DNA from: an uncultured Cytophagales bacterium
GTDB lineage: Bacteria; Bacteroidota; Bacteroidia; Cytophagales; Bernardetiaceae
Assembly (NCBI GenBank): GCA_963761725.1
Contig: CAVXHP010000006.1
Coordinates: forward strand, 253,534-317,533
Direction: 5' to 3'
Length of the DNA stretch: 64,000 bases
Shown here: in pieces, positions 16,775-41,200 of the stretch
How positions within the stretch are numbered: the stretch's first letter is position 1
Layout: each line of letters begins with the position of its first letter
Made by a program: the position numbers and the translations under genes
The notes under the pieces: generated by a model
The model's database searches: none
What the model saw: the letters and a program-made list of their open reading frames with translations, nothing else
Told to the model about the DNA's origin: nothing

Positions 16775-16806
16775 TAATCGTAATTTTTAATTCGTAATTC
16801 GTAATT
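16775..16806. repeat. Heptamer TCGTAAT repeat (right arm of an inverted pair)
   Basis: Sequence taatcgtaatttttaattcgtaattcgtaatt, which is near-complementary to 16614-16644. Confidence 0.8.
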
Positions 16807-16810
16807 GTTT

Positions 16811-24810: not shown

Positions 24811-24869
24811 ATAAATTTATTAATGTTTGTGTTCTGCAAACAACATTCCCAACATTTTTCTAAAATCAC

Positions 24870-24900
24870 AATCTCATAATTATTATTTTATCAAAATAAA
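24870..24900 (+). repeat. attL core (31-bp direct repeat)
   Basis: Identical to 40069-40099. Confidence 0.8.
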
Positions 24901-25036
24901 CAATCTATTGTTTTTTTACTTTTTATGTATAATATGAAAACGCCCCTCAGATATAAATAAGGCACTTTTTAGTCAAAAGAGTTGAATAAGTCAAAGTAGA
25001 ACATAGTGATTTTTTTTACACTATATTTACACCAAG

Positions 25037-26266
25037 ATGTCTTCTATCAAAACTATTTTGTACACACAGAAAAAACTAGCAGACGGACAGTCGCCAGTTA
25101 TGCTTTACGTTTATGAAGAAAAACCTTATCGTCTTTCACTAGGTTACAGAGCTTTTCCGAAAGACTGGGATAATAAGAAAGGGAGGTTTAATAAAAGCCA
25201 TCCTAATGCAAAAGCTAAAAACCTTGAATTACGTAAAAAGGAACTACTTGCTCACGAGCTTGTAGATGATTTTGTCAGAAAAGGAGAACGATTTGATTTC
25301 CCTACTTTCAAAAAAGTATTTAGAGGAGAAAAAGAAGAAAAACAGGAAGAGAAAAAAGAAGTTAATTTTTATGACTTTGTTGAAGAGCTAATTTCTGCTA
25401 AGAAAAAACTTGGAAAAATATCTACTTCAAGAGGTTACAAAGATGTTTACAATATCTTAAAGCGTTACCATCCAAAGCCATTAAAGTTTGAGGATATAAA
25501 CTATTCCTTTCTGAAAAAAATAGAAGCTGAACTATTTGCAATAGGGTCTAAAAAAGGAACTGTCTTTACTCGTATGGCTATACTAAGAGCTATGTATTAT
25601 GAAGGTATTAGATGCAATCACATTTCAAAAGATAAAAACCCCTTTAATAATTCCTTTAAAAAAGACGGATATAATTTTTCAAAATTTAAGTCAGATTTAA
25701 GACCTAGAGCTTTAGATAAAGAAGAGTTAGATAGGTTCAGAAATTTTGATATTAAGAAATATCCAGAGCTATCCTTAGCTTGGTATTATTTTATGTTTTC
25801 TTTCAAGTTGTTTGGGATTAATTTCACAGATATAGCAAAGCTAACAGACGATAATATTAAAGGCACACGTTTGGAGTATGTAAGACAAAAAACAGGTAAA
25901 TCCTTTAGTTTGCTACTAACAAAAGAAACACAAGATATTATAAAAAATTTTAGTTCTGAATCAGATTATCTCTTTCCAGTTCTCAAAAAAGAGAAGCATA
26001 ACACTATTGTAAAAATAAAAAACAAAATAGGTAATACTCAAAAGCAAATCAACGACGATTTGAGACAAATTGCACTAATCCAAGGCATTAGTAAATATAT
26101 CACGTTTTATACAGCTAGACATACTGCTGCAATGGCTTTAAAACGCAAGGGAATAAGCACAGATATTATTTCAGAAGCGTTAGGACACAGCGACTTAGCA
26201 GTTACACAACATTATTTGTCTAAGTTTGATAACAATGTTTTAGATAGTGCTATAATGGACTTGTAG
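25037..26266 (+). CDS. int: Tyrosine-type site-specific integrase
   Basis: C-terminal catalytic region TARHTAAMALKRKGISTDIISEALGHSDLAVTQHYL (R..H..R..Y pattern). The N-terminal arm-type/SAM-like region is typical of Bacteroidota integrases. Confidence 0.9.
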   Translation: MSSIKTILYTQKKLADGQSPVMLYVYEEKPYRLSLGYRAFPKDWDNKKGRFNKSHPNAKAKNLELRKKELLAHELVDDFVRKGERFDFPTFKKVFRGEKEEKQEEKKEVNFYDFVEELISAKKKLGKISTSRGYKDVYNILKRYHPKPLKFEDINYSFLKKIEAELFAIGSKKGTVFTRMAILRAMYYEGIRCNHISKDKNPFNNSFKKDGYNFSKFKSDLRPRALDKEELDRFRNFDIKKYPELSLAWYYFMFSFKLFGINFTDIAKLTDDNIKGTRLEYVRQKTGKSFSLLLTKETQDIIKNFSSESDYLFPVLKKEKHNTIVKIKNKIGNTQKQINDDLRQIALIQGISKYITFYTARHTAAMALKRKGISTDIISEALGHSDLAVTQHYLSKFDNNVLDSAIMDL

Positions 26267-26353
26267 CACTTATTCGGATTCAAATCACTTGAAATATCCA
26301 TTTCTATTTACATACTCTTGAAAATAAATTTTCAAACAAAAATGTAACACAAA

Positions 26354-26668
26354 ATGGATATTTCAAAATTTGGCTGGACACGAAAAGAACAAGAAGTAAA
26401 AACAGGAGATTATCATTTTTCTGGTCGTATTCTTATGACAGCTACTGTTCAAGAGCATTTAGAACAAGAGGTAATACAAGCTATTGTATTTGATGCCTTG
26501 AAATTTGCAAAAGAACAAAACGGAATAGACTATTTATTAGTCTATCTAAATGCAGAAACAGGCGAAAAGCTATTTTTCATTGATGAATCTACTAAGGCTG
26601 AATTACAGTCTGGTCAAAAGCCACAAGAGTATAATTATGCTACTCTTATGTTTGCAGAAGATTACTAA
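26354..26668 (+). CDS. Hypothetical protein (104 aa)
   Basis: Clean ATG..TAA ORF followed by a terminator hairpin. No recognisable motif. Confidence 0.5.
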   Translation: MDISKFGWTRKEQEVKTGDYHFSGRILMTATVQEHLEQEVIQAIVFDALKFAKEQNGIDYLLVYLNAETGEKLFFIDESTKAELQSGQKPQEYNYATLMFAEDY

Positions 26669-26675
26669 AAAAACA

Positions 26676-26705
26676 AAAAGCAAGAACAGATTTGTTCTTG
26701 CTTTT
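26676..26705. terminator. Bidirectional hairpin terminator
   Basis: AAAAGCAAGAAC agattt GTTCTTGCTTTT, located between convergent genes. Confidence 0.65.
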
Positions 26706-26727
26706 CTTTTATAAAGAATATTATCTT

Positions 26728-27081
26728 TTATAAGATTCTGGTTCCATCTTCTACTTTAAAAGAAGGCTCTAACAATACAGTTCCTTCTTTTTTACATATA
26801 GCAGCCAATACTAAAACCTCAGATTTCACACCAGCAATCCTTTTTGAAGGGAAATTAATTACAGCAATGATTTGTTTGTTCATTAGGTCTTCAATAGTGT
26901 AATTTTCTGTTATTTGTGCAGAACTATTTTTTACCCCTAACTTTCCAAAGTCAATTTCTAATTTATAAGCTGGTTTACGAGCCTTTGGATTTAGTTCTAC
27001 TGATATTATAGTTCCAGTAAACATTCCAACTTTTAAGAAATCATCAAACTGGATTTCTTGTAAATTTTCTATATTTTGCAT
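26728..27081 (-). CDS. csaA: CsaA/Trbp111-like tRNA-binding (EMAP/OB-fold) domain protein
   Basis: FLKVGMFTGTIISVELNPKARKPAYKLEIDFG...SSAQIT...LMNKQIIAVINFPSKRIAGVKSEVLVLA. ATG at 27081. Confidence 0.75.
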   Translation of the reverse strand: MQNIENLQEIQFDDFLKVGMFTGTIISVELNPKARKPAYKLEIDFGKLGVKNSSAQITENYTIEDLMNKQIIAVINFPSKRIAGVKSEVLVLAAICKKEGTVLLEPSFKVEDGTRIL

Positions 27082-27165
27082 TGATTTCAAAGGTTAAATT
27101 AAATGTTTTAAACAAAAACTCCCCACTACTGACTATCAGTATAGTGAGGAGGATTACTATTTTAA

Positions 27166-28074
27166 CTAATCAAAACCATTAACCAAGCTAAATTCTAAAG
27201 GAATTTCCAAATGCTCCTCTAAAGAATCAAACTTGAAAGAAGGGTGTTTTTCGCTTTTTGGTCTTCTCGTGAAGAAAAGAATCATATCTCGCCACGCTTC
27301 TAAGTTTTCGTCGTGTGGATTCAATGCAGATACTGAATGTTTCAATTCGCTATCTACAATAATAAGGGTATCTAAAAAATGCCAATGTTGGCACTTACCT
27401 ATAACAAATCTAGGGTCTGTTTTATCCCAAGATACGCCTATTTGTTGCTTTTCATTATGTACTTCTGATATTGCAGAGTTCTTTTTCATATTACTAGAAC
27501 GAATAAACGTAGTCATAGTATGCTCTACTCCATCGCTATGAACCCCCTCTTTTGCAGGTTCTCCAATATGGTCTTTATTAGTGATAGTACGAAGCTGAAA
27601 AACTGTTGATACCCAACACATTACATCTTTTTGCAAGTTTGAACGAAGTTTTACATCCACGCTGCTAATAATGATAGCCTTAAATTTCATTAGAGCTTGA
27701 AATGCAGTGTTACATTGTAAATTATCTTGAATCCCTCTAAAATGACGCAACATACCTGCATCATCTCTGACAAAATCTTCATCCTCAGAAAGAACAAAAG
27801 GTTGAAATTTTAGTCTAGAAACTTTCTCTTCTTGTAGGTTAATAAGAAAACGACCATTACGAGACTTTCTAAACGGAAGAGTTGGGTCTTCTCCCAAATC
27901 TTGGTTAGCATATTGAAGATTAGACAAATCTTCCTCACTTGCACCTAAAAAGCGTAGGATAGTTTCAATCTTCCATCCTTGAATAAAAACAAATCTGTTT
28001 TTTTCATAATTTTCCTTAATCTCCATTAGGTATTTCCCAACAGGAGTTACTTTTGACATCAAATTTGTACTCAT
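27166..28074 (-). CDS. 2OG-Fe dioxygenase family protein (PF10014-like, the isoleucine-hydroxylase IDO family)
   Basis: EGVHSDGVEH (HxD) ...IRSSNM... then D..LKHSV (distal His) and WRDMILFFTRR. Resemblance to the PF10014 consensus is judged from memory. Confidence 0.6.
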   Translation of the reverse strand: MSTNLMSKVTPVGKYLMEIKENYEKNRFVFIQGWKIETILRFLGASEEDLSNLQYANQDLGEDPTLPFRKSRNGRFLINLQEEKVSRLKFQPFVLSEDEDFVRDDAGMLRHFRGIQDNLQCNTAFQALMKFKAIIISSVDVKLRSNLQKDVMCWVSTVFQLRTITNKDHIGEPAKEGVHSDGVEHTMTTFIRSSNMKKNSAISEVHNEKQQIGVSWDKTDPRFVIGKCQHWHFLDTLIIVDSELKHSVSALNPHDENLEAWRDMILFFTRRPKSEKHPSFKFDSLEEHLEIPLEFSLVNGFD

Positions 28075-28427
28075 AGTATTAGTTATTTTGTTTGAGTATA
28101 AAATAATATTGCGTTTGACTGTCTAATCATTAAAAAAGGTCTAGGTAGTCTTTAAGTTATTTTGTACTACCCAGTGTCGTAAATGTATCCTATTTACGGC
28201 ACTTTTTTTATGTGAAAAAGATAACAAACAACAATGCATCACAAACGTTAGTAATGTTATCATAAATATAAGTTATATTTTTTATTTAGGCAAATTATTT
28301 GATATAATAACTAACAAAAATCACGAATTTTTTTTTCGCAATAGTTTCTACATAAAATATATATTGCTATTATAGCTTACAATTTTGTAGTTTTGCAAAA
28401 AATCACAGCACTAAAACATAATTTATA

Positions 28428-29546
28428 GTGAGAAATAATACAACAAACGTTAGGAATATCTTATCTCTTTGGTTAGGTGTATTCCTTAGTAGGATGAGAC
28501 AACAAAGGAGTATTTCAGCTAATGACCTTAGTACGACAATGAAATTTTCTACTCCTTATTTACGTATGGTGGAAAATGGTCTTACCAACATAGCCCCAGC
28601 AAGAGCATTAGATGTATTGATAGGTTTTACAGACTTATTCAGTTTGAATGGTTACTTGTCATCACTTAGTAATTACTTAGTTGCTGTACAGTATCTATCA
28701 ACTTATGATGACGTAAAAAGCACAAAAGCTGCATTACAAGATTTGAAAGATGCAGATAAAGGTTTAGAAAAATTACTTTCAAATATTAATGATATACATT
28801 GGAAATATTTGGAAGAACAAGATTATGATGAACTAAAGAATAGTTTTGGAAAAAAGCCATTTGTTGAAGAGTTAGAAAAATATTTGACTAATCCATATTA
28901 TGCCCTTAATCAAGTAGATGGAATTGCTCAAAATTGGGCAGACTTATATGGTAAAACACCTTCACTATTTCAAGATTTTCTATATAGAAGATACAATTCA
29001 ATAAAAAACGACATAGAAGACTTAATCTCATACTCTCAATATTATAGCTTATCAGATTGGGAAGATAATAATGAAAAAATGATAGTAAAGTGTTTGGGGA
29101 TTACAAGAAGTATAGACCACTTACTATTAGATTCAGATAAGTTTAAGTGGAGCTTTTTGAAAAATAAAAGTTTTAAAAGTCTGAAATGTATAATATTTGA
29201 GCCGTACAATTCCCTTAAGGAAGATAAACTATTCAGTATAATTTCAGAACAATGCCAAATACCTATTGACAAAGCAAGACAACTTATTAATTTGGTTACA
29301 CTTCCCTCGGATGAGGTAGAGTATATTTGTAATCACTTACCAAGGTATACAAAAAGTTTAAATATAGATTACTGGCTTTATGAATTAAAGAACACAAATA
29401 AAATAGGTTTCTGTATTACTTTTCAAGATAGTTTACCTATAGAACTTAGTAAGCAATATTTAAACTATACTCTATATGATACTTCAGAGATTTTGAGTAA
29501 TGATGAAATACGAGAAATATTTACGATAATAAATCAATATTTATGA
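28428..29546 (+). CDS. XRE-type HTH domain protein with large uncharacterised C-terminal domain
   Basis: N-terminus LSRMRQQRSISANDLSTTMKFSTPYLRMVENGLTNIAPARALDVL resembles an HTH_3 domain. GTG start. The stop overlaps the next start (ATGA). Confidence 0.55.
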   Translation: MRNNTTNVRNILSLWLGVFLSRMRQQRSISANDLSTTMKFSTPYLRMVENGLTNIAPARALDVLIGFTDLFSLNGYLSSLSNYLVAVQYLSTYDDVKSTKAALQDLKDADKGLEKLLSNINDIHWKYLEEQDYDELKNSFGKKPFVEELEKYLTNPYYALNQVDGIAQNWADLYGKTPSLFQDFLYRRYNSIKNDIEDLISYSQYYSLSDWEDNNEKMIVKCLGITRSIDHLLLDSDKFKWSFLKNKSFKSLKCIIFEPYNSLKEDKLFSIISEQCQIPIDKARQLINLVTLPSDEVEYICNHLPRYTKSLNIDYWLYELKNTNKIGFCITFQDSLPIELSKQYLNYTLYDTSEILSNDEIREIFTIINQYL

Positions 29547-30355
29547 AAGCCAAAATATTATTAGAAACTACTGAGAGTAGTATGCATCTAATAGCTAAAG
29601 AGTTTGGAACTCCAATCTTTGTTAGAAAAAATAAAATACTTAATCTCATATCTGATGTTGTCAGAGTAAAAGCAAACTTATTATACCAAGAAATTGAACT
29701 AAATGGAAATTTCCATTGTGATAATCTTACAGTTGAGAAAGTAAAAGTGTATGGTCTACTTGGCAAAACTAGTAATAGCATAAAAACTAATCTTTTACTA
29801 ACAAAAGACATAAAATTATATACTACATTGCCAGTATTGTCAGTCGGTAATAAGGTAATTATCTCATTTTCTAATTTACAGTTTACATCTAAGAATCAAA
29901 GAGTACTAGACCTTGATGATATACCTAAAGATAAATCTAGCCTTATTAATTTCTGTAAAGTATGTAGAGATAACTGTTGTGTATTAGGTAAAGTAAATGT
30001 AACAGAAGAGGAGTATAGAAAAATTTATGAATATACAGGACGAGGAGATTACTTTTTACGCAATGAAGATGGTGTTAGGCAAATTGACAATGAAAAGGGT
30101 AAATATTGTCGTTTTTTTGATAAAGAAAAAAAACTTTGCTCAATTCAACATATCAAACCAATTGAATGTAAAAGTTACCCAGTTTATTTTGGAGAGAAAG
30201 GTTCAATAAAAAATTTTTCAATCTATACTGGATGTCCTGCAAAAAGCTTTTTGACTGAAAAATATGTTTTACAGGCAAAAAAAGAGCTAGAGAAAATACC
30301 TAAGCAAGACAGAGAAAAATATTATGAGATTACTAAAAAACTGGGACAACTATGA
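29543..30355 (+). CDS. YkgJ-family (CxxCxxxCC) Cys-cluster protein with novel N-terminal domain
   Basis: CKVCRDNCC...EEEYRKI...YCRFFDKEKKLCSIQHIKPIECKSYP. Translationally coupled on both sides. Confidence 0.6.
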   Translation: MKAKILLETTESSMHLIAKEFGTPIFVRKNKILNLISDVVRVKANLLYQEIELNGNFHCDNLTVEKVKVYGLLGKTSNSIKTNLLLTKDIKLYTTLPVLSVGNKVIISFSNLQFTSKNQRVLDLDDIPKDKSSLINFCKVCRDNCCVLGKVNVTEEEYRKIYEYTGRGDYFLRNEDGVRQIDNEKGKYCRFFDKEKKLCSIQHIKPIECKSYPVYFGEKGSIKNFSIYTGCPAKSFLTEKYVLQAKKELEKIPKQDREKYYEITKKLGQL

Positions 30356-31443
30356 TATTAGAACTATCAAATATAACAAAGCGTTTTCCTAAGACATTGG
30401 CAGTAGATAATATTTCTCTACAAGTTCAGGCTAATGACCACTTTTTCATTTTAGGCTCTAGTGGATGTGGAAAGAGTACGCTTTTAAATATGATAGCAGG
30501 TTTTATTAAACCTGATAAAGGAATTATAAAATTAGATGGAAATATAATAAATGAAATTTTACCTAATAAACGCCCTATTCATACTGTTTTTCAAGATTAT
30601 GCTCTTTTTCCTCATTTAAATGTATTTGAAAATATAGCATTTAGTTTAAAAGTTCAAAAAGTAAATAAGAGTAATATAAAACATAGAGTGGGAGAGATGC
30701 TAGAACTAGTTAAATTAAGTGGCTTTGAACTCCGTAGAGTTAATGACCTTAGTGGAGGAGAAAAACAAAGAATTGCATTAGCTAGAGCTTTAATAAATCG
30801 TCCTTTAATACTACTCTTAGATGAACCACTTTCTGCTTTAGATTCTAAATTGAAGCGTGAAATGATTGTAGATTTACAAAAAATCAAAAGAGATATTAAT
30901 TGTACATTCATTCACGTAACTCACGACCAATCAGAAGCTCTAAGTTTAGGGGATAAAATTGCAATAATGAGTAAGGGTAAAGTAATACAAGTAGATTCTC
31001 CTATGAACATTTATCAAAAACCTACTACTCATTTTACAGCTTCTTTTATGGGGAAAATAAATACTTTTGAAATAAATAATATATTTAATCGTAGTAATAG
31101 TATTTATATAGGGAAAGCCAAAGATGGTAGTTTATTTTCTTTTGTCTCTGATAAAAAGATTGAAAAAACTGTTTTACTTGGTATTAGACCAGAAAATATT
31201 ATTGTTAGCAAAATAAAAAATAAATCTTTGTTACCTGATTTCTCCTTAGAGAAAAATAAATTGATAGGAAAAATACTATTACAATCCTTTCAAGGTAGTG
31301 ATATTGAATATACATTATTAACATCAATAGGAGAGTTTATAGTGCGAGTTCCTTTAAGTAAAGTAGCAGATTTTAAAACTGAGGAAGAGCTTTTACTTGA
31401 GTGGGAGACTGAATCTTCAATAGTTCTAAATAAAAATGTATAA
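30352..31443 (+). CDS. potA: ABC transporter ATP-binding protein, PotA-like (polyamine-type importer)
   Basis: Walker A GSSGCGKST, signature LSGGEKQRIALARAL, Walker B LLLDEPLSALD, and a C-terminal TOBE-like region. Confidence 0.85.
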   Translation: MILELSNITKRFPKTLAVDNISLQVQANDHFFILGSSGCGKSTLLNMIAGFIKPDKGIIKLDGNIINEILPNKRPIHTVFQDYALFPHLNVFENIAFSLKVQKVNKSNIKHRVGEMLELVKLSGFELRRVNDLSGGEKQRIALARALINRPLILLLDEPLSALDSKLKREMIVDLQKIKRDINCTFIHVTHDQSEALSLGDKIAIMSKGKVIQVDSPMNIYQKPTTHFTASFMGKINTFEINNIFNRSNSIYIGKAKDGSLFSFVSDKKIEKTVLLGIRPENIIVSKIKNKSLLPDFSLEKNKLIGKILLQSFQGSDIEYTLLTSIGEFIVRVPLSKVADFKTEEELLLEWETESSIVLNKNV

Positions 31444-32279
31444 TGAAAAAAATAAAAGTAAGTTGGATAAATAAAATACTGATATTTCCTTCTGGACTTT
31501 GGATAACAGCATTTTTTTTGATGCCCTTTTTTGTAGTTTTTATTTATACGTTTTTTAGTAGGGGTATTTATGGTAACATTGAGTACAACATCAATATAAA
31601 TAATTATTATAGAGCTTTTGAGTTTGTGTATGCTACATCTTTTTTTCGTTCATTAATATATGCTATACTCACTAGTTTAATAACTTTATTAATTGGATAT
31701 CCTGTTGCATATTGCATAGTTAAAATTTCAAATTTAAAGGTTAAAAGACTACTATTATTTCTTATAATACTTCCTTTTTGGTCAAATTATATTGCGAGAA
31801 TATATGCTTGGGCTATGCTACTGAGTGATAAAGGAATAGTATATCAATTACTATTTGAGTTAAATTTGATAGAAGAAAATCTAAGTATCTTATACTCATC
31901 AAACGCAGTTTATATTGGTCTAATTCATAATTATCTACCTTTTATGATACTATCAATATATGTCGCATTAGAAAACATAGATAAAAGGATATTAAATGCT
32001 TCCTATGATTTAGGTGCATCATTTAGTTACTCATTTATGAGAATTATACTACCCTTGTCTTATAGTGGAATTAGAAATGGATGTATAATGGTATTTAGTT
32101 TTGCAATAGCTGACTACGTAATACCTAACATACTTGGAGGTTCTAAAAAACTTCTAATAAGCAATGTAATTTCTAACCAGTTTATTACAACTAGAGATAT
32201 TCCTTTCGGTGCTACTTTAACAGTCTTATTCACTATTTTAGTATTTGCAATGATATATTACTTATATAAAAAAAATTAA
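31443..32279 (+). CDS. potB: ABC transporter permease, PotB-like
   Basis: Six TM helices with an EAA-like loop (NASYDLGAS...MRIILPLS). Confidence 0.8.
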   Translation: MKKIKVSWINKILIFPSGLWITAFFLMPFFVVFIYTFFSRGIYGNIEYNININNYYRAFEFVYATSFFRSLIYAILTSLITLLIGYPVAYCIVKISNLKVKRLLLFLIILPFWSNYIARIYAWAMLLSDKGIVYQLLFELNLIEENLSILYSSNAVYIGLIHNYLPFMILSIYVALENIDKRILNASYDLGASFSYSFMRIILPLSYSGIRNGCIMVFSFAIADYVIPNILGGSKKLLISNVISNQFITTRDIPFGATLTVLFTILVFAMIYYLYKKN

Positions 32280-32281
32280 AA

Positions 32282-33061
32282 ATGTTTGTAATGAATAAAA
32301 CCTTATCTATATATACATTCCTAATAATAAGTTTCTTATACATTCCTATAATTATACTAGCTATATATTCATTCAGTTCTGACCCCTATTCTATTTCTTT
32401 AAATAGTTTTTCTTTAGATGCATACATAGATTTATATAATGATAGAAGTTTTATATCAGCAATATGGAATAGTGTCATCGTAGCAATAATAGCATCTACA
32501 TTAGCTATAACTATTACAATTCCATTAGTTTATATTTTACACAAAAAGAAAAATATTATAGCGATAACAATAAAGAGTGTGTCCAAGTGGATTTTAATAG
32601 TGCCAGATATAAGTGTTGCTATTGGCATAATGATTTTATTTAAAGCTCTCAACTTCAATAGAGGTTTAGAAACAATTATTATTTCTCATACTACATTTTC
32701 TATAGCATATACAATACTAATAATTGAACCACATATTGAAAGTATTGTACCAAAATTAACAAATGCTGCGATGGATTTAGGTGCAACCGAAATACAAGTT
32801 ATTACAAGTATAATCATACCCTTGATAACTCCCAATTTAATAGTTGCTTTTTGTATTAATTTTACGTTATCTTGGGACGACTTTATTTTTTCTTTTTTCA
32901 ATTCAAGTGCAGGAAATTCTACTCTTTCTGTTTATATTTACACTCTTATAAAAAAAGGTGCTAATCCATCAATCAATGCTATATCTATCATATCTATGAT
33001 TGTATCATTGATTTTTATTACTATTAGCATAAAATTTCAAAGAATTTTGAACAAAATTTAA
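32282..33061 (+). CDS. potC: ABC transporter permease, PotC-like
   Basis: Six TM helices with an EAA-like loop (NAAMDLGATEIQVITSIIIPLITP). Confidence 0.8.
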   Translation: MFVMNKTLSIYTFLIISFLYIPIIILAIYSFSSDPYSISLNSFSLDAYIDLYNDRSFISAIWNSVIVAIIASTLAITITIPLVYILHKKKNIIAITIKSVSKWILIVPDISVAIGIMILFKALNFNRGLETIIISHTTFSIAYTILIIEPHIESIVPKLTNAAMDLGATEIQVITSIIIPLITPNLIVAFCINFTLSWDDFIFSFFNSSAGNSTLSVYIYTLIKKGANPSINAISIISMIVSLIFITISIKFQRILNKI

Positions 33062-33066
33062 CAATT

Positions 33067-34111
33067 ATGTTGAAGCATATAAAACATAGCCTATTTATAA
33101 CCATACTTTTCATTTTTGGAGGTTGTTCTTTTCGACAACAACAATAATAAAGAAAAAACAGACGAATTCATAAACGTCTATAATTGGACATATGTTATTC
33201 CTTCTGAGGTAATTACAGATTTTGAAAAAACATATCATGTGAAAGTAAATTATGATAATTACTCTTCTAATGAAGAATTATTAGCTAAAATACAAAGCCC
33301 ATCACATAATTACGATTTAATTTTTCCTAGTGATTATATGGTGCAAATAATGATAAAACAAGATTTATTAGCACCATTGAATTACAGTAATATTCCTAAT
33401 TCAGAAAATATTTCAGACGATTTTAAAGGCTTATTTTTTGACCCTAAAGATAAATATAGCATACCTTTTGAATGGTCTACAGCAGGTATTAGTGTCAATA
33501 CTAATAAAGTTCAGAATTACAATAAGTCGTGGGATATACTATTTGATGAAAAGTTTAAGAATGATGTAACAGTGTTAGATGACATGAGGTATGGTATTTT
33601 ACCAGCTATATTTAAGCTAGGTTACAATCCAAACACAAAGGAAGAAGACGAGATTAATAAAGCAAAAGAATTGATGTTTAAACAAAAAGAATTTGTTAAA
33701 GCATATAGTAGTGATACTTATATTGATATGCTAAAAAAAGAAGAAGTTGCTATTGCTTATGGTTGGAGTATAGACTTATTAAAAATCCAAAAGGAAAAAC
33801 CACACATTCGTTATTTTATTCCCAAAGAAGGTTCTACAAAAATTATAGAATTGATGTGTATTCCAAAAGAATCTAAAAGAAAAGGTTTAGCAGAAAAGTT
33901 TATTAATTACATACTAATTCCAGAGATTCACGCTAAAATCTCTAACTATTCAATGGCAACAAACCCTAATGAGAAGGCAAAACCTTTTATAAACGAAAAT
34001 TATAGAAGTATTAGTGATAGCGTTGATATGGACAAGCTCTTTTTTCTGAAAGATGTTGGAGACGCAACTATATTTTATGATAATGCTTGGAATGATATAA
34101 AAAATAAGTAA
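33067..34111 (+). pseudogene. potD: PotD-like periplasmic/lipoprotein solute-binding protein; signal peptide out of frame with the mature domain (+1)
   Basis: ATG at 33067 encodes MLKHIKHSLFITILFIFGGCSF, a lipoprotein signal, and then stops at 33145. The mature domain (track ORF 33116-34111: NVYNWTYVIP...) is in the next frame. Deleting one T of the T4 run at 33129-33132 fuses them as ...GGCSFDNNNNKEK. Confidence 0.75.
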
Positions 34112-34146
34112 TGTGATTAAAATTAGTTTTAACTTTTTTAATCAAA

Positions 34147-34737
34147 ATGAACCTACTCCCCCACCAAATAGCCCAAAAGTTATGAGTTTCCGAAAGGACA
34201 ATCTATAATTATAGAAAAAAAATAAAAGGTAAATTCAAAGAAGAGCTAAGAAACGGCATGACTTACCTAGAGTTTGTACCATTTTTAGAGTATGCAAAAT
34301 CACTTGGCAATACCTTTCCGAAAGATTCAGAAATATTTCCGAATATTCAGAAAGAGGCACAAAATGATTCAGAAAAAGTGAAAGAAAACAAGATAGAAAA
34401 GCCAAATTGAAATTTCTGAAATATTTCGGAAAGGGTTGCAGAAGTTTCCGAAAGCAAGGAAAATACCCAAAACCGAAATAAAAAGAAAAAACAGCTAGAA
34501 AATTATAGCAATAATCTAAATGAACAAGTTCAAAAATATGCACTTGCATTTAATGAAGAAAAAGCAGAGAGAAAAGAATTACAAAAAAAATACGATACTT
34601 TAGAAACTAGATTTTTGGATAAGGTAGAAGAAGTAGCTCGTTTTAAATGAAAAACAGCTTTATTCTTTGCACTTTTGGGAGGACTTGCTTTTGCTCTTAC
34701 ACTAATTTTAGTTTACCTACTCTTTCTCAAAACCTAA
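34147..34737 (+). pseudogene. HTH DNA-binding protein with coiled coil and C-terminal TM helix; open only if 4 in-frame TGA are read as sense
   Basis: ATG at 34147 and TAA at 34735. In-frame TGA at 34183, 34408, 34417 and 34648. Reads ...HQIAQKL[TGA]VSERTIYNYRKKI...; with Gly this gives the canonical LGVSxxTIY helix-turn-helix. The C-terminus ALFFALLGGLAFALTLILVYLLFL is a TM helix. Confidence 0.6.
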
Positions 34738-34740
34738 AGA

Positions 34741-35034
34741 AAAACAACGTTGTCTTTTTTTATTTTACTATTTTATATATTTTACGCAGCTTAAAGACCA
34801 GTTCAGACCTAGTGTTTCAGACTTAAAGATGGAATAAGATAGGTCTAAATAAGAGTATTATGGGGTAAAATATGAATAAATTAGGGTTTAAGATGGAATA
34901 AGATAGGTTCTATATATGAGAAAAATGAGGTTGTTGAAAAAATAAGTATGGAAATAAAAGTTTTCCACTCATATTTTAGCTTGTATTTATGTAAATTTTC
35001 CTTAGATTTTTAGTGTTTAGCTTATCTTACTGCA
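34741..35034 (+). other. Putative iteron-type replication origin upstream of rep
   Basis: 19-bp iteron AAGATGGAATAAGATAGGT at 34826-34844 and 34890-34908, 64 bp apart, with similar flanks. AT-rich stretch at 34754-34785. The 12-mer CCAGTTCAGACC at 34798-34809 is repeated inside rep at 35728-35739. Confidence 0.6.
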
Positions 35035-36231
35035 ATGGAAAAAGCCACACAACAGTTAGTAGTAAAGCATAATTATCTGATTAATGCCAAATATGATTTT
35101 TCTCTTTTAGAAATGAAGGTATTTTTGTTAGCCGTTTCTAAAATACAGCCACAAGATAAAACAACTACCAAGTATAGAATTTATGTAAAAGATTTTAAGC
35201 AACTTGTAAACACACAATCTAAGCAGGAATATAAAAGAGTGAAAGCAACCGTTAAAAGTCTAATGAAAAAGATTGTAGAAATACCAAGAGGAGAAGATAA
35301 ATCTGTTTTGATGTGTCAATTATTTTGACCTTCTGTTTACCACGACGGAGAAGGCTATGTAGAAATTCAGTTTTATGAAGAAATAAGAGCTTATTTATTA
35401 GAACTCAAAGAGAGATTTACACAGTATAACCTTCACAATATTGTCAGAATAAAATCCTTTTCCAGTATTAGAATCTATGAATTACTCAAACAGTACGAAA
35501 CGATAGGAAAAAGAACTTTTGAACTTACAGAGCTAAAAAGTATTCTAAAGGTAGAGAAAAAGTATAAATCATACGCTGATTTTAAAAGGTATATTTTAAA
35601 GAGAGCGCAGAAAGAAGTTTGAGCCTATTGTGATATTTCATTTACCTTTAAAGAAATCAAAAAGGGTAGGAGAGTAAATAAATTAGTGTTTTACATCCAA
35701 AGGAAGGAAAAAAAAGATACTCAAAACCCAGTTCAGACCGTCGTAGAAAATGATTTAAGTGCAAAATTTTTGCTTACCCCTAGACAAGTCCGTGAAGTGC
35801 TAAAAAAATATGAGAATGATTTGCTTCATTTAGAGAAAATTCTTTGAGAAATAGCTAAGAAATATAAAACAGGAGAAATAGAAAAATTAGGAGCTTATAC
35901 TTTCAAAACTTTAATAGAAGGAAAACACGAAAAAAGTCTTTTTGATGAAGAAGTCCAAATAGAAAAAGACAAAAAGCAACAGAAGAAAGCAGCAAAGATA
36001 GAAGAACAAAAACAGAGTGAAAAAGATAAACAGAAAACACAAGAAGAAAAAGAGCAGCTAATCACTCAGATAGAAAAAGCACTTTCAGAAGATGAAAAAA
36101 ATAGTTTGGAAGAGGAATTTAAAACTCATATTTCAAAACCTCATTTGCAACAACTAAGCGAACGCCCACGAGGAAAGAAGATATTACGACAAAATTTTTT
36201 GGCTAAAAAGTTCCTATCCGAAGACGATTAA
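35035..36231 (+). pseudogene. rep: Rep_3-type plasmid replication initiator; open only if 3 in-frame TGA are read as sense
   Basis: Reads QQLVVKHNYLINAKYDFSLLEMKVFLLAVSKI ... YHDGEGYVEIQF ... IRIYELLKQYETIGKRTFELTELKSIL...YADFKRYILKRAQKEV... The single frame is open for 398 codons. In-frame TGA at 35326, 35620 and 35845; terminates with TAA at 36229. Confidence 0.75.
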
Positions 36232-36254
36232 ATTTTATTTTCAACTTTGTTTGA

Positions 36255-36689
36255 ATGGAAAAGACAAAAGCAGATTTTGATTTGCGAAACAAGCAGAAAC
36301 AAAAAATAGAAAAAAGTGATGATTCTATACTTTCAGTTCGTGAATGACAACTTTGGCGATATTATGAGTGAATGAATGTAGGTAACGAACAATCAAAATG
36401 AAGAGAATGAAATTTTAGAAGAGTAGGTTTGATTCTAAACAAAAAAGTAGGTCGTTGAATGGTTCTTATTCTACCTATCACAACAAAATACAAAGAAGAA
36501 CATAGGGTTTACAAACTTCTCATTAAGAACCCTACTCAATACGGACTTTCAAATCCAAGTGCATTTATCTTAAATCGTTTCAACGTTATTTCTACAAAAA
36601 GATTAATTAAGGAAAAATCTGATTCTGTTTTACACTCTAATTTTTTGCAACTTTTGAAGAGGAAAATAATTAGCACTATTCACGAATAA
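36255..36689 (+). pseudogene. MazF/PemK-like toxin; open only if 5 in-frame TGA are read as sense
   Basis: ATG at 36255 and TAA at 36687. In-frame TGA at 36345, 36369, 36399, 36408 and 36456. Reads SVRE[TGA]QLWRYYE[TGA]MNVGNEQSK[TGA]RE[TGA]NFRRVGLIL...LILPITTK...FNVISTKRL. It aligns without gaps to Kid/PemK ERGEIWLVSLDPTAGHEQ (recalled from memory), placing the first TGA on the conserved Gly. Confidence 0.65.
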
Positions 36690-36879
36690 AGAAATACATC
36701 ATTATTTATTTTTCTCTAATATTAAATTAGCAACTTTTTAGATTATTTGAACTTAATTACCATTTCTAAGATGGAATGTTGCATAGGGTGGATAGTTATA
36801 AGAATATTTTGTAGAAATAATGTTATATTTGATTAGAGTTAGTGTTAACAAATTTACTTACAAATAACGTGCATTATAA

Positions 36880-38241
36880 ATGATTATAGTTAGACCTAGG
36901 TTGAATGATTATCATAACATTCCATTCACACAAGAAGAAGTAGATTTTGCAATTCCTTATTTGAATGAAGATATACCTTTATATGTTGATCCATTTTTAT
37001 TGTGGAAATCTCCATCACTTCAAGATAATTCTTTGCATACAGTTATCATCAACTCATTTAATCATCTTGGTCATTTAGTTAATACAAATAAAGAAGACAA
37101 AGCTATTGATATTCTGGTACAAACAAGTGAATGTAATGAAGTTGGAATGGGTAATTCAAAAACAAGAATAGGAAAACCAATAGGACATAAAACAGCTAAA
37201 GAAATATTGAATTTATTTATAAATATTCCTCAGTTAAAAAGCTCTGGTTTCGTCCATTTTGAAAGTATTCAACTACTTGTTAATGGTATTTCAAAGGATA
37301 GAATTAGTGATTTTACTACTAGCTTTATTAAATCTTTTCTAATAGATTATACAATAGAACAATGTGAAAAATATCACATACCTATTCATTCTGTAAAAAT
37401 AGAATCACTTTATAGTTACAAAGAAAATTCTATAATTTCAGAGAACGTTTATTTACCTACGAATCCTGAAAATAACTCTCCTATTTTGTTTGTTCCAAAA
37501 AGATGGTTAAGATTCATTCCTTGGATAAATTTTGATGACTACTATAAAACCTTTCAATTAAAAGATACACAACAACAAAAAGATAGAATTCCATTATTGA
37601 ATTACAATAGACAGAATTTCGATGCTGTTATGGCTTATGTAAAAATTAAGGAAAGTGAAAGAAAATTATGTAAAAATGACTTGATATTTAAGCCTATTTC
37701 AAAGACTTCTGTTACTAGAAAGGTAAATACAATTATTAAACTAGATACAGGCAAGACAAATAATGCTGATATTGAATTTGAAAAAAATATTTGTTCTGTA
37801 CTTCCTACGACATTCTTTCCATATTTGGATTTTGCTGAAGCACAAAGTAGAACTGTAGATGGAGTACATATAAGAGATTTAATATTTTATAATAATCGTT
37901 CTCACTCTTTCCTTGAGGAAATATATGAACAGTATGAATGTAAACAGATTATTTTTGAACTAAAGAATGTTAAGGAGCTAAGTAATGAACACGTAAATCA
38001 ACTGAATAGATACTTAAAAGAGCAATTTGGTAAATTTGGTGTTTTAGTAACGAGAAGCCCTCCATCTAAGAAAGTCCTGAAAAACATAATAAATTTATGG
38101 TCAGGTCAGCGAAAATGTATTTTAGTTCTTACAGATGAAGACATGAAATTAATAGGCAGTCTTTATCAAGGAAATCAAAGACCAGCCATTGATATTTTAA
38201 AGAAAAAATATGTAGAGTTTACAAGAGATTGTCCATCCTAA
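36880..38241 (+). CDS. Uncharacterised 453-aa protein with C-terminal Mrr/PD-(D/E)xK-like nuclease signature
   Basis: C-terminus reads VDGVHIRDLIFYNN...(about 25 aa)...IIFELKNVKELSNEHVNQLNRYLKEQFGKFGVLVTRSPPS, a D...ExK pattern followed by a Q..Y and G.lvT pattern like restriction-endonuclease (Mrr_cat) domains. The N-terminal 300 aa has no recognisable family. Confidence 0.55.
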   Translation: MIIVRPRLNDYHNIPFTQEEVDFAIPYLNEDIPLYVDPFLLWKSPSLQDNSLHTVIINSFNHLGHLVNTNKEDKAIDILVQTSECNEVGMGNSKTRIGKPIGHKTAKEILNLFINIPQLKSSGFVHFESIQLLVNGISKDRISDFTTSFIKSFLIDYTIEQCEKYHIPIHSVKIESLYSYKENSIISENVYLPTNPENNSPILFVPKRWLRFIPWINFDDYYKTFQLKDTQQQKDRIPLLNYNRQNFDAVMAYVKIKESERKLCKNDLIFKPISKTSVTRKVNTIIKLDTGKTNNADIEFEKNICSVLPTTFFPYLDFAEAQSRTVDGVHIRDLIFYNNRSHSFLEEIYEQYECKQIIFELKNVKELSNEHVNQLNRYLKEQFGKFGVLVTRSPPSKKVLKNIINLWSGQRKCILVLTDEDMKLIGSLYQGNQRPAIDILKKKYVEFTRDCPS

Positions 38242-38253
38242 ATTTTAAACTAG

Positions 38254-38649
38254 ATGAATGAAGAGCAAATTAACAATTTTGAGAAATGTCAGACACAAAT
38301 TGAAGGATTATTATCTGAGATAGGTTTATTATCTAAGAAAAATCCTAATGATGCAGTAAATAAATTCAAACTTATTTTTATTAATGAATTAATTACGAAT
38401 GCTAACATAATTCTGACTTCTGACTATATGCCTTTCAAATCGTTCAATGATTTTGATGTAGATTCTGTCCCCTCTAATAGTGATGTTACTTTCATCCTAT
38501 CACAATATCTAAATTGTTTTGAGAAACTAAGAGCAGATAATATATACTGTAAGTCTGAATACATAGGAGGTAAATACCATAATAATTGGTATTGGAGAAC
38601 AGGTAATAAAAAATTAATAGCTACTTCACAACCAAACAAAATAAAATGA
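38254..38649 (+). CDS. Small hypothetical protein, paralogue A (131 aa)
   Basis: Shares P..(D/E)..NKFK...IN...(V/L)PSNSD....I.QY......R with the next ORF. Its stop overlaps the next start (ATGA). Confidence 0.6.
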   Translation: MNEEQINNFEKCQTQIEGLLSEIGLLSKKNPNDAVNKFKLIFINELITNANIILTSDYMPFKSFNDFDVDSVPSNSDVTFILSQYLNCFEKLRADNIYCKSEYIGGKYHNNWYWRTGNKKLIATSQPNKIK

Positions 38650-39062
38650 AAAATAACAAAAAAAATGAAAAAGATTTATTTCCTTCTCAAGAAGAAGTAG
38701 ATAAATTCAAAATGTTAGAAGGTTTAATTGAATCTATTACTTTAGAAATGAAGGAATTTGCTAAGAAGAAGCCTGATGAAACATTGAATAAGTTTAAGAC
38801 TAATACAATAAATAATATTCTAAAAGACTTGAAAGAAATCATGAGAAAGGAAGCTACCAATGATTATCTTGTTTTATTAGATAAAGATGTTTTACCATCT
38901 AATAGTGATGCTGTGATTGTCATAGGACAATATAACTCAGCAATATCTCAATTTAGAGCAAAATATAATGGTAAAACAGACGAATATTCGTTACAACGTT
39001 GGTTCACACAAGAAAATCCAGGAACTCATTATAAGCAAAGAGGTTTATTAGATGGGTTGTAA
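38646..39062 (+). CDS. Small hypothetical protein, paralogue B (138 aa)
   Basis: Paralogous to 38254-38649 (KKKPDETLNKFKTNTINN...LPSNSDAVIVIGQYNSAISQFRAKY). Translationally coupled to it. Confidence 0.6.
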   Translation: MKNNKKNEKDLFPSQEEVDKFKMLEGLIESITLEMKEFAKKKPDETLNKFKTNTINNILKDLKEIMRKEATNDYLVLLDKDVLPSNSDAVIVIGQYNSAISQFRAKYNGKTDEYSLQRWFTQENPGTHYKQRGLLDGL

Positions 39063-39172
39063 GTTTTATTTTAGTTAAAAATTATAAGCTACATCTATTA
39101 ATTTAGTGGTAGCTTTTTTTATATAAGTAACCATATTGTTAGCAAATAAAAAACATTTAATTTATTATAATT

Positions 39173-39235
39173 GAATCTCCTTCTGTTTTACACTCTAATT
39201 TTTTGCAACTTCTCAAAAGGAAAAATTTCATTTAA
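39173..39235 (+). pseudogene. Orphan 3'-end fragment of a second MazF-like toxin allele
   Basis: Encodes ESPSVLHSNFLQLLKRKNFI*, compared with KSDSVLHSNFLQLLKRKIISTIHE* at 36615-36689. A 31-bp identical core occurs at 36623-36653 and 39181-39211. It is followed by synonymous differences (TTG AAG versus CTC AAA). Confidence 0.75.
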
Positions 39236-39242
39236 AAAAATC

Positions 39243-39280
39243 GCCTACTCACACTAAGGAGAGTAGGAAGCTGGAGACTC
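39243..39280. repeat. 38-bp hairpin-containing direct repeat, copy A
   Basis: GCCTACTCACACTAAGGAGAGTAGGA-agc-TGGAGACTC, preceded by an A-run. CCTACTC/GAGTAGG forms a hairpin. On the minus strand this is a hairpin followed by a T-run, which is terminator-like. Confidence 0.7.
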
Positions 39281-39442
39281 AAATTAAGGTCTCTATGGCA
39301 TTTGCTTTTAAGCTAATGCCTATGAAAATAGCTTATTGATTTTTAAAGAAAGATCAAGTTTTTATTATTTCTACTTATTTACAACTTAATGCTCTAATTG
39401 TCGTACTCATATAGAAGATTTTTTTAATTAAACCTTACTATT

Positions 39443-39778
39443 ATGTCAATAAGAAATGTATTAAGCATAAACTATAGCTTTACACAAGAACAAGAAGAAA
39501 TGATTAATTCTGAAATTCATAAACACGCTAAAGAAAATGCAGGTTTTCTAAGTAAATACTCTGTTGAGTTTAAGTCTGTTAAAATCACTGGGAATAAAAA
39601 TGGAGATTTTATTACTCTTAAAGGGAGTGGTACTGTACAAGGGCATATCACAAAAAGTAGTAATTCTAATTATACCCAAGAGGGTGTAGAGGAAAAAACA
39701 GCATACTTTAATTTTGATGTTTCCATAGATGAAGAAGATGAAATAGTGGTTGAATCTAATAGCACAACTTATATCTAA
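39443..39778 (+). CDS. Hypothetical protein (111 aa)
   Basis: ATG..TAA ORF followed by a strong hairpin. No recognisable motif. Confidence 0.5.
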   Translation: MSIRNVLSINYSFTQEQEEMINSEIHKHAKENAGFLSKYSVEFKSVKITGNKNGDFITLKGSGTVQGHITKSSNSNYTQEGVEEKTAYFNFDVSIDEEDEIVVESNSTTYI

Positions 39779-39794
39779 ATATGTTCTTTTTACT

Positions 39795-39837
39795 AAAAAT
39801 AGCCATTCATAATCAAAAATTATGAGTGGCTATTTTT
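39795..39837. terminator. Hairpin terminator
   Basis: AAAAATAGCCATTCATAAT caaaa ATTATGAGTGGCTATTTTT. Confidence 0.7.
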
Positions 39838-39987
39838 CATTTTATAGGCATTGAAAGTATTAATGATTTATTTCATTTTTCAATTCAGAAAAGAAGTTGA
39901 ATTTATTTTGTCTTTTGGTTTTTTGCCTTTCGGTTCGCTCGTGGAAAAAGAAGAAAAGGAATAGCGAAATGTTGTTTAAAAAAAATT

Positions 39988-40025
39988 GCCTACTCACACT
40001 AAGGAGAGTAGGATGTTGGAGACTC
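39988..40025. repeat. 38-bp hairpin-containing direct repeat, copy B
   Basis: GCCTACTCACACTAAGGAGAGTAGGA-tgt-TGGAGACTC, preceded by an A-run. It matches 39243-39280 at 35 of 38 positions. Confidence 0.7.
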
Positions 40026-40068
40026 TGCCTTTGTTAGTATTCCCACCAACGATATTTTCAATATTTCT

Positions 40069-40099
40069 AATCTCATAATTATTATTTTATCAAAATAAA
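40069..40099 (+). repeat. attR core (31-bp direct repeat)
   Basis: Identical to 24870-24900. It lies 57 bp upstream of the sucD ATG. Confidence 0.8.
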
Positions 40100-40155
40100 A
40101 GGTATTTTTGTCTATATCATTTTTTACATTCACAAAAAATAACTATAACGAAACT

Positions 40156-41043
40156 ATGAGCGTACTTGTAAATAAAGATTCTAAAATTATCGTTCAAGGA
40201 TTTACTGGAAAAGAAGGTTCTTTTCATGCCGAACAAATGATCGAATACGGAACTAATGTAGTAGGTGGAGTTACACCAGGAAAAGGTGGTACTTTGCATT
40301 TGGGTTTGCCTGTTTATGATACGGTTGCTGATGCTGTTGAAGATGCAAAAGCTGATACTTCAATTATTTTTGTTCCACCTGCGTTTGCTGCCGATGCCAT
40401 TATGGAAGCTGCTGATGCTGGAATTAAGGTAATTATTGCGATTACAGAAGGAATTCCTGTTCAGGATATGGTAAAAGCAAAAGCATATGTTTTGGCTCAC
40501 AAAGATTGTCGTCTGATAGGTCCAAACTGTCCTGGAGTAATTACGCCAGGTGAAGCAAAAGTAGGAATTATGCCTGGTTTTGTATTCAAGAAAGGTAAAA
40601 TCGGAATTGTTTCTAAATCAGGAACATTGACGTATGAAGCTGCCGACCAAGTAGTAAAAGCAGGAATGGGAATCTCAACAGCTATCGGAATCGGTGGTGA
40701 CCCAATCATCGGAACAACTACAAAAGAAGCCGTAGAACTTTTGATGAATGACCCAGAAACAGAAGCAATCGTTATGATTGGTGAAATTGGTGGAAACTTA
40801 GAAGCAAATGCTGCTCGTTGGATTAAAGAAACAGGTAATAAGAAGCCAGTAGTTGGTTTTATTGCTGGACAAACAGCTCCAAAAGGAAAACGTATGGGAC
40901 ACGCAGGTGCAATAATCGGAGGTGCAGATGATACAGCAGAAGCAAAAATGCGTATTATGCGTGAATGTGGAATCCACGTGGTAGATTCTCCTGCAAATAT
41001 TGGAGTTACGATGAAAGAAGTTTTGGATAAAGCTCACGCTTAG
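40156..41043 (+). CDS. sucD: Succinate--CoA ligase (ADP-forming) alpha subunit
   Basis: [24 protein letters not shown]...GGVTPGKGG...SKSGTLTYE...MGHAGAII (catalytic His loop). ATG at 40156. Confidence 0.95.
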
Positions 41044-41050
41044 TTTCTTC

Positions 41051-41081
41051 AATTACGAATTACGAATTAAAAATTACGAAT
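41051..41081. repeat. Heptamer ATTACGA repeat (left arm)
   Basis: Sequence aattacgaattacgaattaaaaattacgaat. Its inverted partner is at 41172-41200. Confidence 0.8.
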
Positions 41082-41171: not shown

Positions 41172-41200
41172 ACGTAATTTTTAATTCGTAATCCGTAATT
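41172..41200. repeat. Heptamer CGTAAT repeat (right arm)
   Basis: Sequence acgtaatttttaattcgtaatccgtaatt. Confidence 0.8.

Follow-up and report, generated by a model that had tools for sequence, protein, structure and literature searches.

How does the end of one gene come to stand on both sides of a cassette of other genes? This question is raised by a stretch of 64,000 nucleotides from an uncultured Cytophagales bacterium (contig CAVXHP010000006.1 of assembly GCA_963761725.1, positions 253,534 to 317,533; hereafter the window, whose own numbering is used below). In it, the 3' end of a PemK/MazF-like toxin gene (36255-36689, + strand) recurs about 2.5 kb downstream, beyond the three genes of a candidate anti-phage system. 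A preliminary description of the locus, made from its letters alone, explained the repeat by recombination between two related elements, with the cassette swapped in between conserved flanks. Our analysis confirms the observation and supports the interpretation in part. The cassette is an insertion relative to its close relatives, and it lies in a plasmid-type module whose genes are predicted to read TGA as glycine. Taken alone, the flanking repeat is an ordinary record of defence-cargo gain at a mobile-element hotspot. The surprise is the module itself, a set of selected genes with TGA as a glycine codon that is kept in three standard-code Cytophagales chromosomes, one of them known from the complete genome of a cultured isolate.

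Two copies of a toxin gene end flank the cassette

On re-reading, the coordinates and sequences of the repeat, its 31-nt core and the codon differences beside the core all proved to be correctly described. The toxin gene ends in KSDSVLHSNFLQLLKRKIISTIHE (36615-36689), and ESPSVLHSNFLQLLKRKNFI is encoded at 39173-39235 on the same strand. The core, TTCTGTTTTACACTCTAATTTTTTGCAACTT, has two exact occurrences in the window (36623-36653 and 39181-39211) and found no match in 100 shuffles, even when 3 mismatches were tolerated. The full direct repeat is 51 nt long, with 46 of 51 positions identical (90%). Copy 1 (D2a, 36616-36666, + strand) lies at the upstream junction of the cassette and copy 2 (D2b, 39174-39224) within the second toxin gene end. 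None of the five differences of the 51-nt repeat falls within the central 31 nt; given 5 random differences in 51 nt, an identical run of at least 31 nt has a probability of p = 0.03-0.04.

Directly after the core, copy 1 reads TTG AAG AGG AAA and copy 2 reads CTC AAA AGG AAA. The preliminary description concluded from this that the copies differ by synonymous changes. When all six in-frame differences between the copies are counted, three are synonymous and three nonsynonymous (K>E, D>P), and three or more synonymous changes out of six have P = 0.17 under neutrality, so that the argument from synonymous change is not significant.

Relatives carry the uninterrupted toxin gene

Two related loci were found when one genome per species was searched with the TGA-free half of the toxin, one in the chromosome of Bernardetia sp. 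OM2101 (L006; a cultured isolate with a complete genome, NZ_CP170094.1) and one in a metagenome-assembled Cytophagales genome (L007; CAVRCG01). The gene module that contains the toxin (34147-36689 in the window, 7686-10225 in L006, 7687-10225 in L007) is 92.5% identical to that of L006 and 93.7% to that of L007 at the nucleotide level. The alignments to the window stop at 36667 for L006 and at 36665 for L007 and both restart at 39174; the DNA in between (36667-39173, + strand, about 2.5 kb) is missing from both relatives. Their toxin genes run uninterrupted to the ends ...LLKKKIKNFI* (L006) and ...LLKRKVKKFI* (L007), and the same hairpin follows directly, then a structured region of about 110 nt. 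These are the full-length alleles ending like the second fragment for which the preliminary description had suggested a search. The stretch 39173-39235 is collinear with these ends, the assignment of both window copies as toxin gene 3' ends holds, and the segment duplicated in the window corresponds to 51-52 nt of the empty site (10158-10209 in L006).

Because the uninterrupted genes run into the same hairpin, copy 2 with its tail NFI*, together with the hairpin behind it, is the displaced native end of this toxin gene. Compared with the relatives, the PDC-M36 segment has been inserted, not exchanged between conserved flanks as had been proposed; an exchange of that kind is found in the neighbouring slot (see below). 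The layout is that of an att-type boundary, with direct repeats that share an identical core, have diverged arms and correspond to an empty site in relatives. It is unlikely that the empty sites arose by loss of a cassette, since L006 and L007 hold 6 nt that are found in neither window copy. The empty sites and the displaced gene end date the insertion of the cassette.

A site-by-site comparison with the empty sites of L006 and L007 showed that both window copies have two derived bases in common in the core. Copy 1 has just one private base. Copy 2 has four, none of them in the core (GA>CC on the left, T>C and G>C on the right), and a deletion of 6 nt at its right edge. Its left edge, which encodes ..ESPS.., looks foreign, as does the new tail of copy 1, IISTIHE*. 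The earlier view of copy 2 as the remnant of a different allele may hold for the GA>CC edge and has to be given up for the tail and the hairpin. The tail of copy 1 conforms to I-x-x-[F/T]-I, the pattern seen in toxin tails of this family (IKNFI, VKKFI, IRNTI, CLQFIQ); it may accordingly be the end of a real, more distant toxin allele, and not a random read-through.

The inserted genes form a candidate PDC-M36 system

The cassette consists of one A gene and two B paralogs, which lie next to each other on the + strand, match PADLOC profiles and have no in-frame TGA. The A gene (36880-38241) encodes a putative PDC-M36A protein (DUF8370) of 453 amino acids that matches PDLC04597 over its full length (E=1e-220). 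Its C-terminus has a weak PD-(D/E)xK nuclease-like match (Pfam PDDEXK_3, 23.1 bits). We found 2839 homologs, at about 60% identity, in Bacteroidota, Chlorobi, Firmicutes and archaea; such identity across phyla is typical of horizontally mobile defence genes. The first PDC-M36B paralog (38254-38649, 131 amino acids) matches PDLC04599 (E=3e-50), with residues 1-131 corresponding to positions 1-124 of the 125 of the profile. Its stop is a TGA that overlaps the next start codon (ATGA), in agreement with the profile length. The second paralog (38646-39062, 138 amino acids) matches PDLC04600 (E=1e-36). We therefore assign the cassette, by profile matches and gene order, as a candidate anti-phage system PDC-M36. 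PDC systems are untested defence candidates that were proposed via guilt-by-embedding (bioRxiv 10.1101/2024.01.29.577857).

Profile searches of the three cassette proteins found no recombinase domain, no transposase domain was found for the insert, and its ends carry no inverted repeat beyond chance. The preliminary description was right to set the repeat apart from the target-site duplication of a transposon or insertion sequence, which is short (2-15 bp) and identical: here the repeat is 51 nt long and 90% identical, and inverted ends and a transposase are lacking. An integron cassette was rejected as well. There is no attC or IntI, Rfam gave no match in the window, the repeats duplicate a coding 3' end in direct orientation and are not imperfect palindromes, and the sole integrase is of phage type and lies 11 kb away.

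The leader of the cassette holds, at 36767-36777, an exact copy of the 11-nt core TAAGATGGAAT of iteron-like repeats found upstream of the neighbouring replication gene, where it is present at 34889. A plasmid donor may have contributed it as a binding site for Rep, but in the space searched the match does not rise above chance level (BLAST E = 0.14). Apart from these 11 nt, no homology was found between the leader or trailer of the cassette and the module.

The interrupted gene belongs to a plasmid backbone with TGA as a sense codon

The toxin is the last gene of a captured small-plasmid backbone that forms the right part of a 15-kb integrative island. The backbone starts with a gene (34147-34737, + strand) for a protein with helix-turn-helix (HTH), coiled-coil and transmembrane features. 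Two iteron-like direct repeats of 22 nt follow (family D20, 34823-34844 and 34887-34908; 95% identical, 64-nt spacing), and downstream of them lies a gene for a Rep_3 replication initiator (35035-36231, + strand; Pfam Rep3_N E=2e-39, Rep3_C E=1e-15). The toxin gene begins at 36255, after a gap of 23 nt, and the hairpin completes the backbone. The same adjacency of Rep and toxin genes occurs in a standard-code relative (L014).

The gene had been called MazF-like in the preliminary description. This agrees with its score of 26.1 bits against the Pfam family PemK (PF02452, cut-off 23.1) when TGA is translated as glycine, and its homolog P0243 is annotated with PF02452; a second homolog is P0242. 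It was overlooked that the frame is open only if TGA is a sense codon, since it contains five in-frame TGA. The HTH gene contains four and the rep gene three, which gives 12 in all and 12 of the 30 glycine codons of the module. TAA and TAG are absent from within these window genes. The TGA codons of the three genes are all kept in L006 and L007, with the exception of one TGA>TAA in the L007 toxin. This TAA stands at codon 39 (about 9911-9913 of L007), where the window and L006 have TGA, and it inactivates the L007 toxin under either code. The L007 rep gene is intact. The last seven codons of the window toxin (IISTIHE*) lie in the inserted DNA.

Decayed pseudogenes would be a simple explanation for open reading frames with so many TGA, and this is ruled out by the pattern of substitution. 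The rep gene has no insertions or deletions relative to L006 and L007, and most nucleotide differences fall at third codon positions (11/6/51 and 8/2/42). The ratio of nonsynonymous to synonymous rates (dN/dS) is 0.05-0.06 for Rep, and below 0.15 in each of its four inter-TGA segments. The toxin has 0.11-0.13 and the HTH gene 0.15-0.20. The host gene sucD, by comparison, gave 0.09-0.12 and the island integrase 0.06 against L006 (0.05 for its 5' part against L007); dS is 0.16-0.31 in the backbone and 0.34 in sucD. The backbone genes are thus under strong purifying selection, with dN/dS of 0.05-0.2.

Alignments indicate glycine as the meaning of TGA. In the standard-code homolog P0243, the five toxin TGA sites are occupied by G, G, G, S and H. 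In Rep, a TGA of the TGA-sense relative L011 (see below) aligns with a window glycine in a glycine-dominant column, and TGA columns are never tryptophan. In the HTH gene, the turn reads KLxVSERTIY. In-frame TGA thus aligns with glycine in standard-code homologs, as in genetic code 25, and we predict that TGA is read as glycine (table 25) in the HTH, Rep and toxin genes. Tryptophan is not favoured by these alignments. With tryptophan at its TGA sites the toxin drops to 21.3 bits, below the PemK cut-off; the substitution test does not discriminate alone, as glutamine gives 28.4 bits.

The host genes of the window follow the standard code. They have no internal TGA, and 10 of the 47 long open reading frames stop at TGA, which argues for the presence of release factor 2 in the host. 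In the Cytophagales chromosomes that carry the module, about 20% of genes stop at TGA. One host gene deserves separate mention. A homogentisate-dioxygenase-like gene (4354-5544, - strand) has a single internal TGA at 4969-4971, which aligns with the conserved glycine of the motif ANGLANPRDF of human homogentisate dioxygenase (HGD). The codon could have come from a private nonsense mutation (GGA>TGA), or else it hints at glycine decoding in the host; an exact look-up of the N-terminal fragment found it on no other contig.

The closest relatives of Rep (53% identity) and of the toxin stand on contigs whose genes all contain many in-frame TGA. The first is a small, plasmid-like contig of 5.5 kb (L011; ENA ERZ780648, NODE_1703) with HTH, Rep and Fic genes, which holds the closest relatives of both the window Rep and the HTH gene. 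The second, with the closest relative of the toxin, is part of a 135-kb chromosomal contig (L015; ENA ERZ26858972, contig_18). We conclude from these relatives that the backbone stems from the plasmid pool of a TGA-sense lineage. The toxin homolog search at the protein level used only the TGA-free C-terminal half. No further members of the toxin family were found in a word-index search, in JGI metagenomes, in IMG/VR or by tblastn against PLSDB. DNA searches of plasmids gave just weak Rep matches, in Emticicia and Chondrinema, and DNA searches of phages gave none. No cognate antitoxin gene adjoins the toxin, and there is no small open reading frame upstream or downstream of it.

The toxin gene is silent under the code of its host, while the inserted cassette uses that code; the island is a mosaic of two codes that are joined within the last codons of the toxin. 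In principle, the backbone genes could be translated with a UCA tRNA encoded elsewhere in the genome or on a mobile element, with a phage-borne tRNA, or after transfer to a code-25 cell. No tRNA gene, suppressor included, was found in the window or in seven related loci. We offer only tentatively, as a possibility well short of an even chance, that the HTH-Rep-toxin module is a code-gated replicon, silent in its host and translated only when a UGA-to-Gly tRNA is available. Such a tRNA might be supplied by an infecting phage or another mobile element, or be met on entry of the island into a cell of the Gracilibacteria/Absconditabacteria type with code 25. The island could then be a satellite or an abortive-infection device that responds to a switch of genetic code, or else a bilingual shuttle that moves between two lineages whose codes are incompatible. 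Standard-code defence cassettes could, in either setting, have gathered at the toxin boundary without disturbing the gated genes.

The consequences depend on where the backbone genes are expressed. If this happens in Bernardetia, there would be a conditional route of UGA-Gly decoding outside Absconditabacteria and Gracilibacteria, open to direct test in an organism that can be grown in culture. Expression only elsewhere would make the island a record of genes that crossed from one genetic code to another.

A second cargo slot lies next to the displaced toxin end

The preliminary description proposed that related islands be compared for different cargo at this junction. Homologous elements do exist, and they carry different cargo beside the boundary. 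Copy 2 is part of the displaced toxin end (39173-39235, + strand) and is followed by a first hairpin copy (D1a, 39232-39280) and a structured region of three hairpins, together spanning 39232-39345 on the + strand and following the toxin gene in all relatives. Within 39236-39345, three consecutive hairpins are closed by a helix of an A-run and a T-run, an arrangement kept in L006 and L007. The predicted RNA fold has -34.4 kcal/mol (z = -4.0). The region has no Rfam match, and no covariation was seen among the 3-4 sequences compared. Possible roles are those of an antitoxin RNA, a control RNA or a plasmid site. A similar-looking stretch lies 3' of the toxin homolog in L014.

The hairpin, CCTACTC-N10-GAGTAGG, belongs to a second direct repeat (D1) of 66 nt, with copies at 39215-39280 and 39960-40025 that are 83% identical. 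The distal copy (D1b, 39960-40025, + strand) is an older, degraded toxin tail with its hairpin; L007 has an orthologous copy with private bases in common. The equivalents of the pair in L007 lie at 10207-10292 and 12889-12974, and L006 is without the distal copy. Between the hairpin copies, the window carries ORF111 (39443-39778, + strand), which has no family match, and L006 and L007 carry instead a cassette of Cap15 and a CD-NTase that resembles a cyclic-oligonucleotide-based anti-phage signalling system (CBASS). In this second slot, then, cargo was replaced between conserved flanks, as had been suggested for the PDC-M36 cassette. As D1b, an older copy of tail and hairpin, is orthologous in the window and L007, the same boundary was hit at least twice, each hit leaving a displaced boundary copy.

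Origin of the 51-nt repeat

The explanation towards which we lean is a single reciprocal crossover, located in the identical core, between the toxin gene and a diverged toxin 3' end that accompanied the cassette. The toxin 3' end and its hairpin would form a boundary where defence cargo accumulates, and the standard-code PDC-M36 cassette would have been brought in when this crossover took place within the 31 identical nucleotides. One partner would be the toxin gene already in place; the other would be a short toxin 3' end of diverged sequence, physically joined to the cassette in a DNA circle. That circle would be an excised module, or else a related plasmid that afterwards lost its duplicated replicon. 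Two hybrid junctions would result, namely copy 1, with the toxin frame open through a new 7-codon tail to its own stop, and copy 2, the displaced original end with the hairpin still attached. An older event of the same kind would have left the D1a/D1b pair around the next cargo slot. The reaction could be carried out by RecA-type short-homology recombination or by a recombinase supplied in trans. If the repeats are active recombination sites, the cassette-free join would read ...core + CTCAAAAGGAAAAATTTCATTTAA and the junction of the circular cassette would read ...TTATAATTGAATCTCC + core + TTGAAGAGGAAAATAATTAGC...

Several findings weigh against the crossover. The insert has no recombinase gene of its own, nor does it have a core in common with the repeats that bound the whole island: these show no similarity to D1 or D2 (p > 0.2), which also rules out the action of the island's own integrase on D1 and D2. 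At a related PDC-M36 locus (L005, 72% amino acid identity) the flanking repeat was not seen, and such repeats are thereby ruled out as a general trait of PDC-M36 cassettes. No donor, that is, a toxin allele ending in IISTIHE* beside PDC-M36, was found in JGI metagenomes or IMG/VR, the family being rare. At 36654 and 36656, to the right of the core, it is copy 1 and not copy 2 that has the bases of L006 and L007. These two bases are more easily explained if the crossover lay at the right edge of the homology, or if copy 2 drifted later, than by a crossover in the core. The clustering of differences outside the core is supported by a statistic of only p = 0.03-0.04, and three independent elements were available in all.

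The same findings bear on the main rival, an in-situ duplication in which the insertion itself copied about 51 nt of its target, through widely staggered breaks or a replication template switch, after which the noncoding copy 2 drifted. The two derived bases that set both window copies apart from L006 and L007 make the copies mutual closest relatives in the core, and private changes number four in copy 2 and one in copy 1, as if only copy 2 were free to drift. The 6 nt lost from copy 2 and the missing donor allele point the same way. Known insertion mechanisms, as generally understood, do not make target duplications of 51 nt, however, and transposon ends and a transposase are absent. Moreover, the differences spare the central 31 nt, the tail of copy 1 looks like genuine toxin tails, and each of the four private changes of copy 2 introduced a C into a region with a G+C content of 28%, an odd outcome for drift alone. 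We consider a duplication in situ unlikely, though it deserves to be taken seriously. The cointegrate that the preliminary description had in mind is, when made explicit, a mechanistically special case of the crossover. A whole related plasmid with a toxin' gene followed by PDC-M36 would have recombined with the resident backbone in the toxin gene, and the second HTH-Rep-toxin' set would then have been trimmed to its last 51 nt. The junctions speak for it exactly as they do for the crossover in general, small plasmids with the Rep-toxin arrangement exist both in standard code (L014) and with TGA as sense (L011), and the iteron core TAAGATGGAAT at 36767 in the cassette leader hints at a plasmid origin. 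That match is nevertheless at chance level, no trace of a second replicon remains, and the cassette is in standard code, whereas one would expect TGA to be a sense codon in a sister plasmid of this backbone. We regard a trimmed cointegrate as quite improbable.

A metagenome assembly could also have been mis-joined at the 31-nt repeat, so that the cassette and the toxin gene are not truly adjacent. A Logan contig built at k=31 (L004) indeed spans exactly from core to core; short-read graphs are ambiguous at such a place, and a break at the core on both sides is expected from a 31-nt repeat at this k. An independent 42-kb ENA contig (L003), from another strain or sample, has the same architecture, with 99.78% identity over 21 kb. 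Its 47 differences from the window (46 substitutions and 1 indel) include two in the cassette and none in 34.1-36.7 kb, the others being in the host flanks. Beyond the core, moreover, the two copies differ and each is contiguous with its own flanks. With this contig, and with the same backbone in a complete isolate genome, an assembly chimera is ruled out for practical purposes and its probability is negligible.

Comparison with known mobile elements

The locus resembles elements that replace the 3' end of a target gene, such as e14 and phage 21 at icd in E. coli and the genomic islands that stand in tandem arrays at tRNA and tmRNA genes. In common with these, it has direct repeats with an identical core and diverged arms, an upstream junction that keeps the target reading frame open through an element-borne end, a native end that is displaced to a remnant at the far junction, and an older, more degraded remnant downstream (here D1b) left by repeated events. 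It differs from them in that the PDC-M36 insert lacks an integrase of its own, that the two nested events used different boundary segments with no common crossover core, and that the target is a gene of another mobile element, written in a different genetic code. The defence-gene hotspots of mobile elements, such as the cargo hotspots of the P2/P4 type and defence islands, offer a further parallel. Here too, conserved flanks hold interchangeable defence cargo (PDC-M36, CBASS, ORF111) at one boundary in close relatives; unlike in those hotspots, one of the gains was an insertion with a 51-nt duplication and not a clean replacement between flanks.

With respect to the code, a close parallel is provided by recoded prophages in standard-code hosts, in which TAG is reassigned to Gln or TGA to Trp and the integrases are free of such stops (Borges et al., bioRxiv 10.1101/2021.08.26.457843). 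Like these, the island is integrated in a standard-code host and has a stop-free integrase, and other genes of it need a reassigned stop. It differs in that the reassignment is TGA to Gly, that only three genes are recoded, that these form a plasmid replicon module (Rep_3, HTH, PemK) without phage structural genes, and that no suppressor tRNA was found in the island. An alternatively coded prophage was therefore rejected, the stop-free integrase being the only one of its features present. The passage of PMC13092985 that cites Campbell et al. 2013 gives UGA-to-Gly as known only in Absconditabacteria and Gracilibacteria. Beyond cells, code 25 has been described for phages assigned to these code-25 hosts (Borges et al., bioRxiv 10.1101/2021.08.26.457843). 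The module resembles code 25 of these lineages in that its TGA aligns with glycine and makes up 12 of 30 glycine codons; unlike there, it resides in Cytophagales chromosomes in which about 20% of the genes stop at TGA.

The integrative island and its host context

The whole island (24849-40099) is bounded by a direct repeat of about 54 nt, whose left copy (attL-like, 24849-24900) matches the right copy (attR-like, 40046-40099) at 87%. The right copy lies just upstream of sucD (40108-41043), and the repeat recurs at this site in L006 and L007. After its left repeat the island starts with a tyrosine integrase gene (25007-26266, + strand) without in-frame TGA; Arm-DNA-bind_5, Phage_int_SAM_5 and Phage_integrase were matched by Pfam on the identical gene of another contig (L008). 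The bounding repeat, the integrase and the sucD site together identify the region as an integrative island of 15 kb, inserted upstream of sucD in the chromosome of a Bernardetia-like member of the Cytophagales.

The island cargo also includes potABCD-like transporter genes, a gene for a protein with a tRNA_bind domain and a gene for a 2OG-Fe oxygenase. The L007 island has an integrase with an internal deletion and different cargo in its middle part. Outside the island, downstream of sucD, a 28-nt inverted repeat of AATTACG-like units is found at 41051-41078 and 41173-41200, with another copy 24 kb away at 16778-16807; it looks like a REP-like element of the host.

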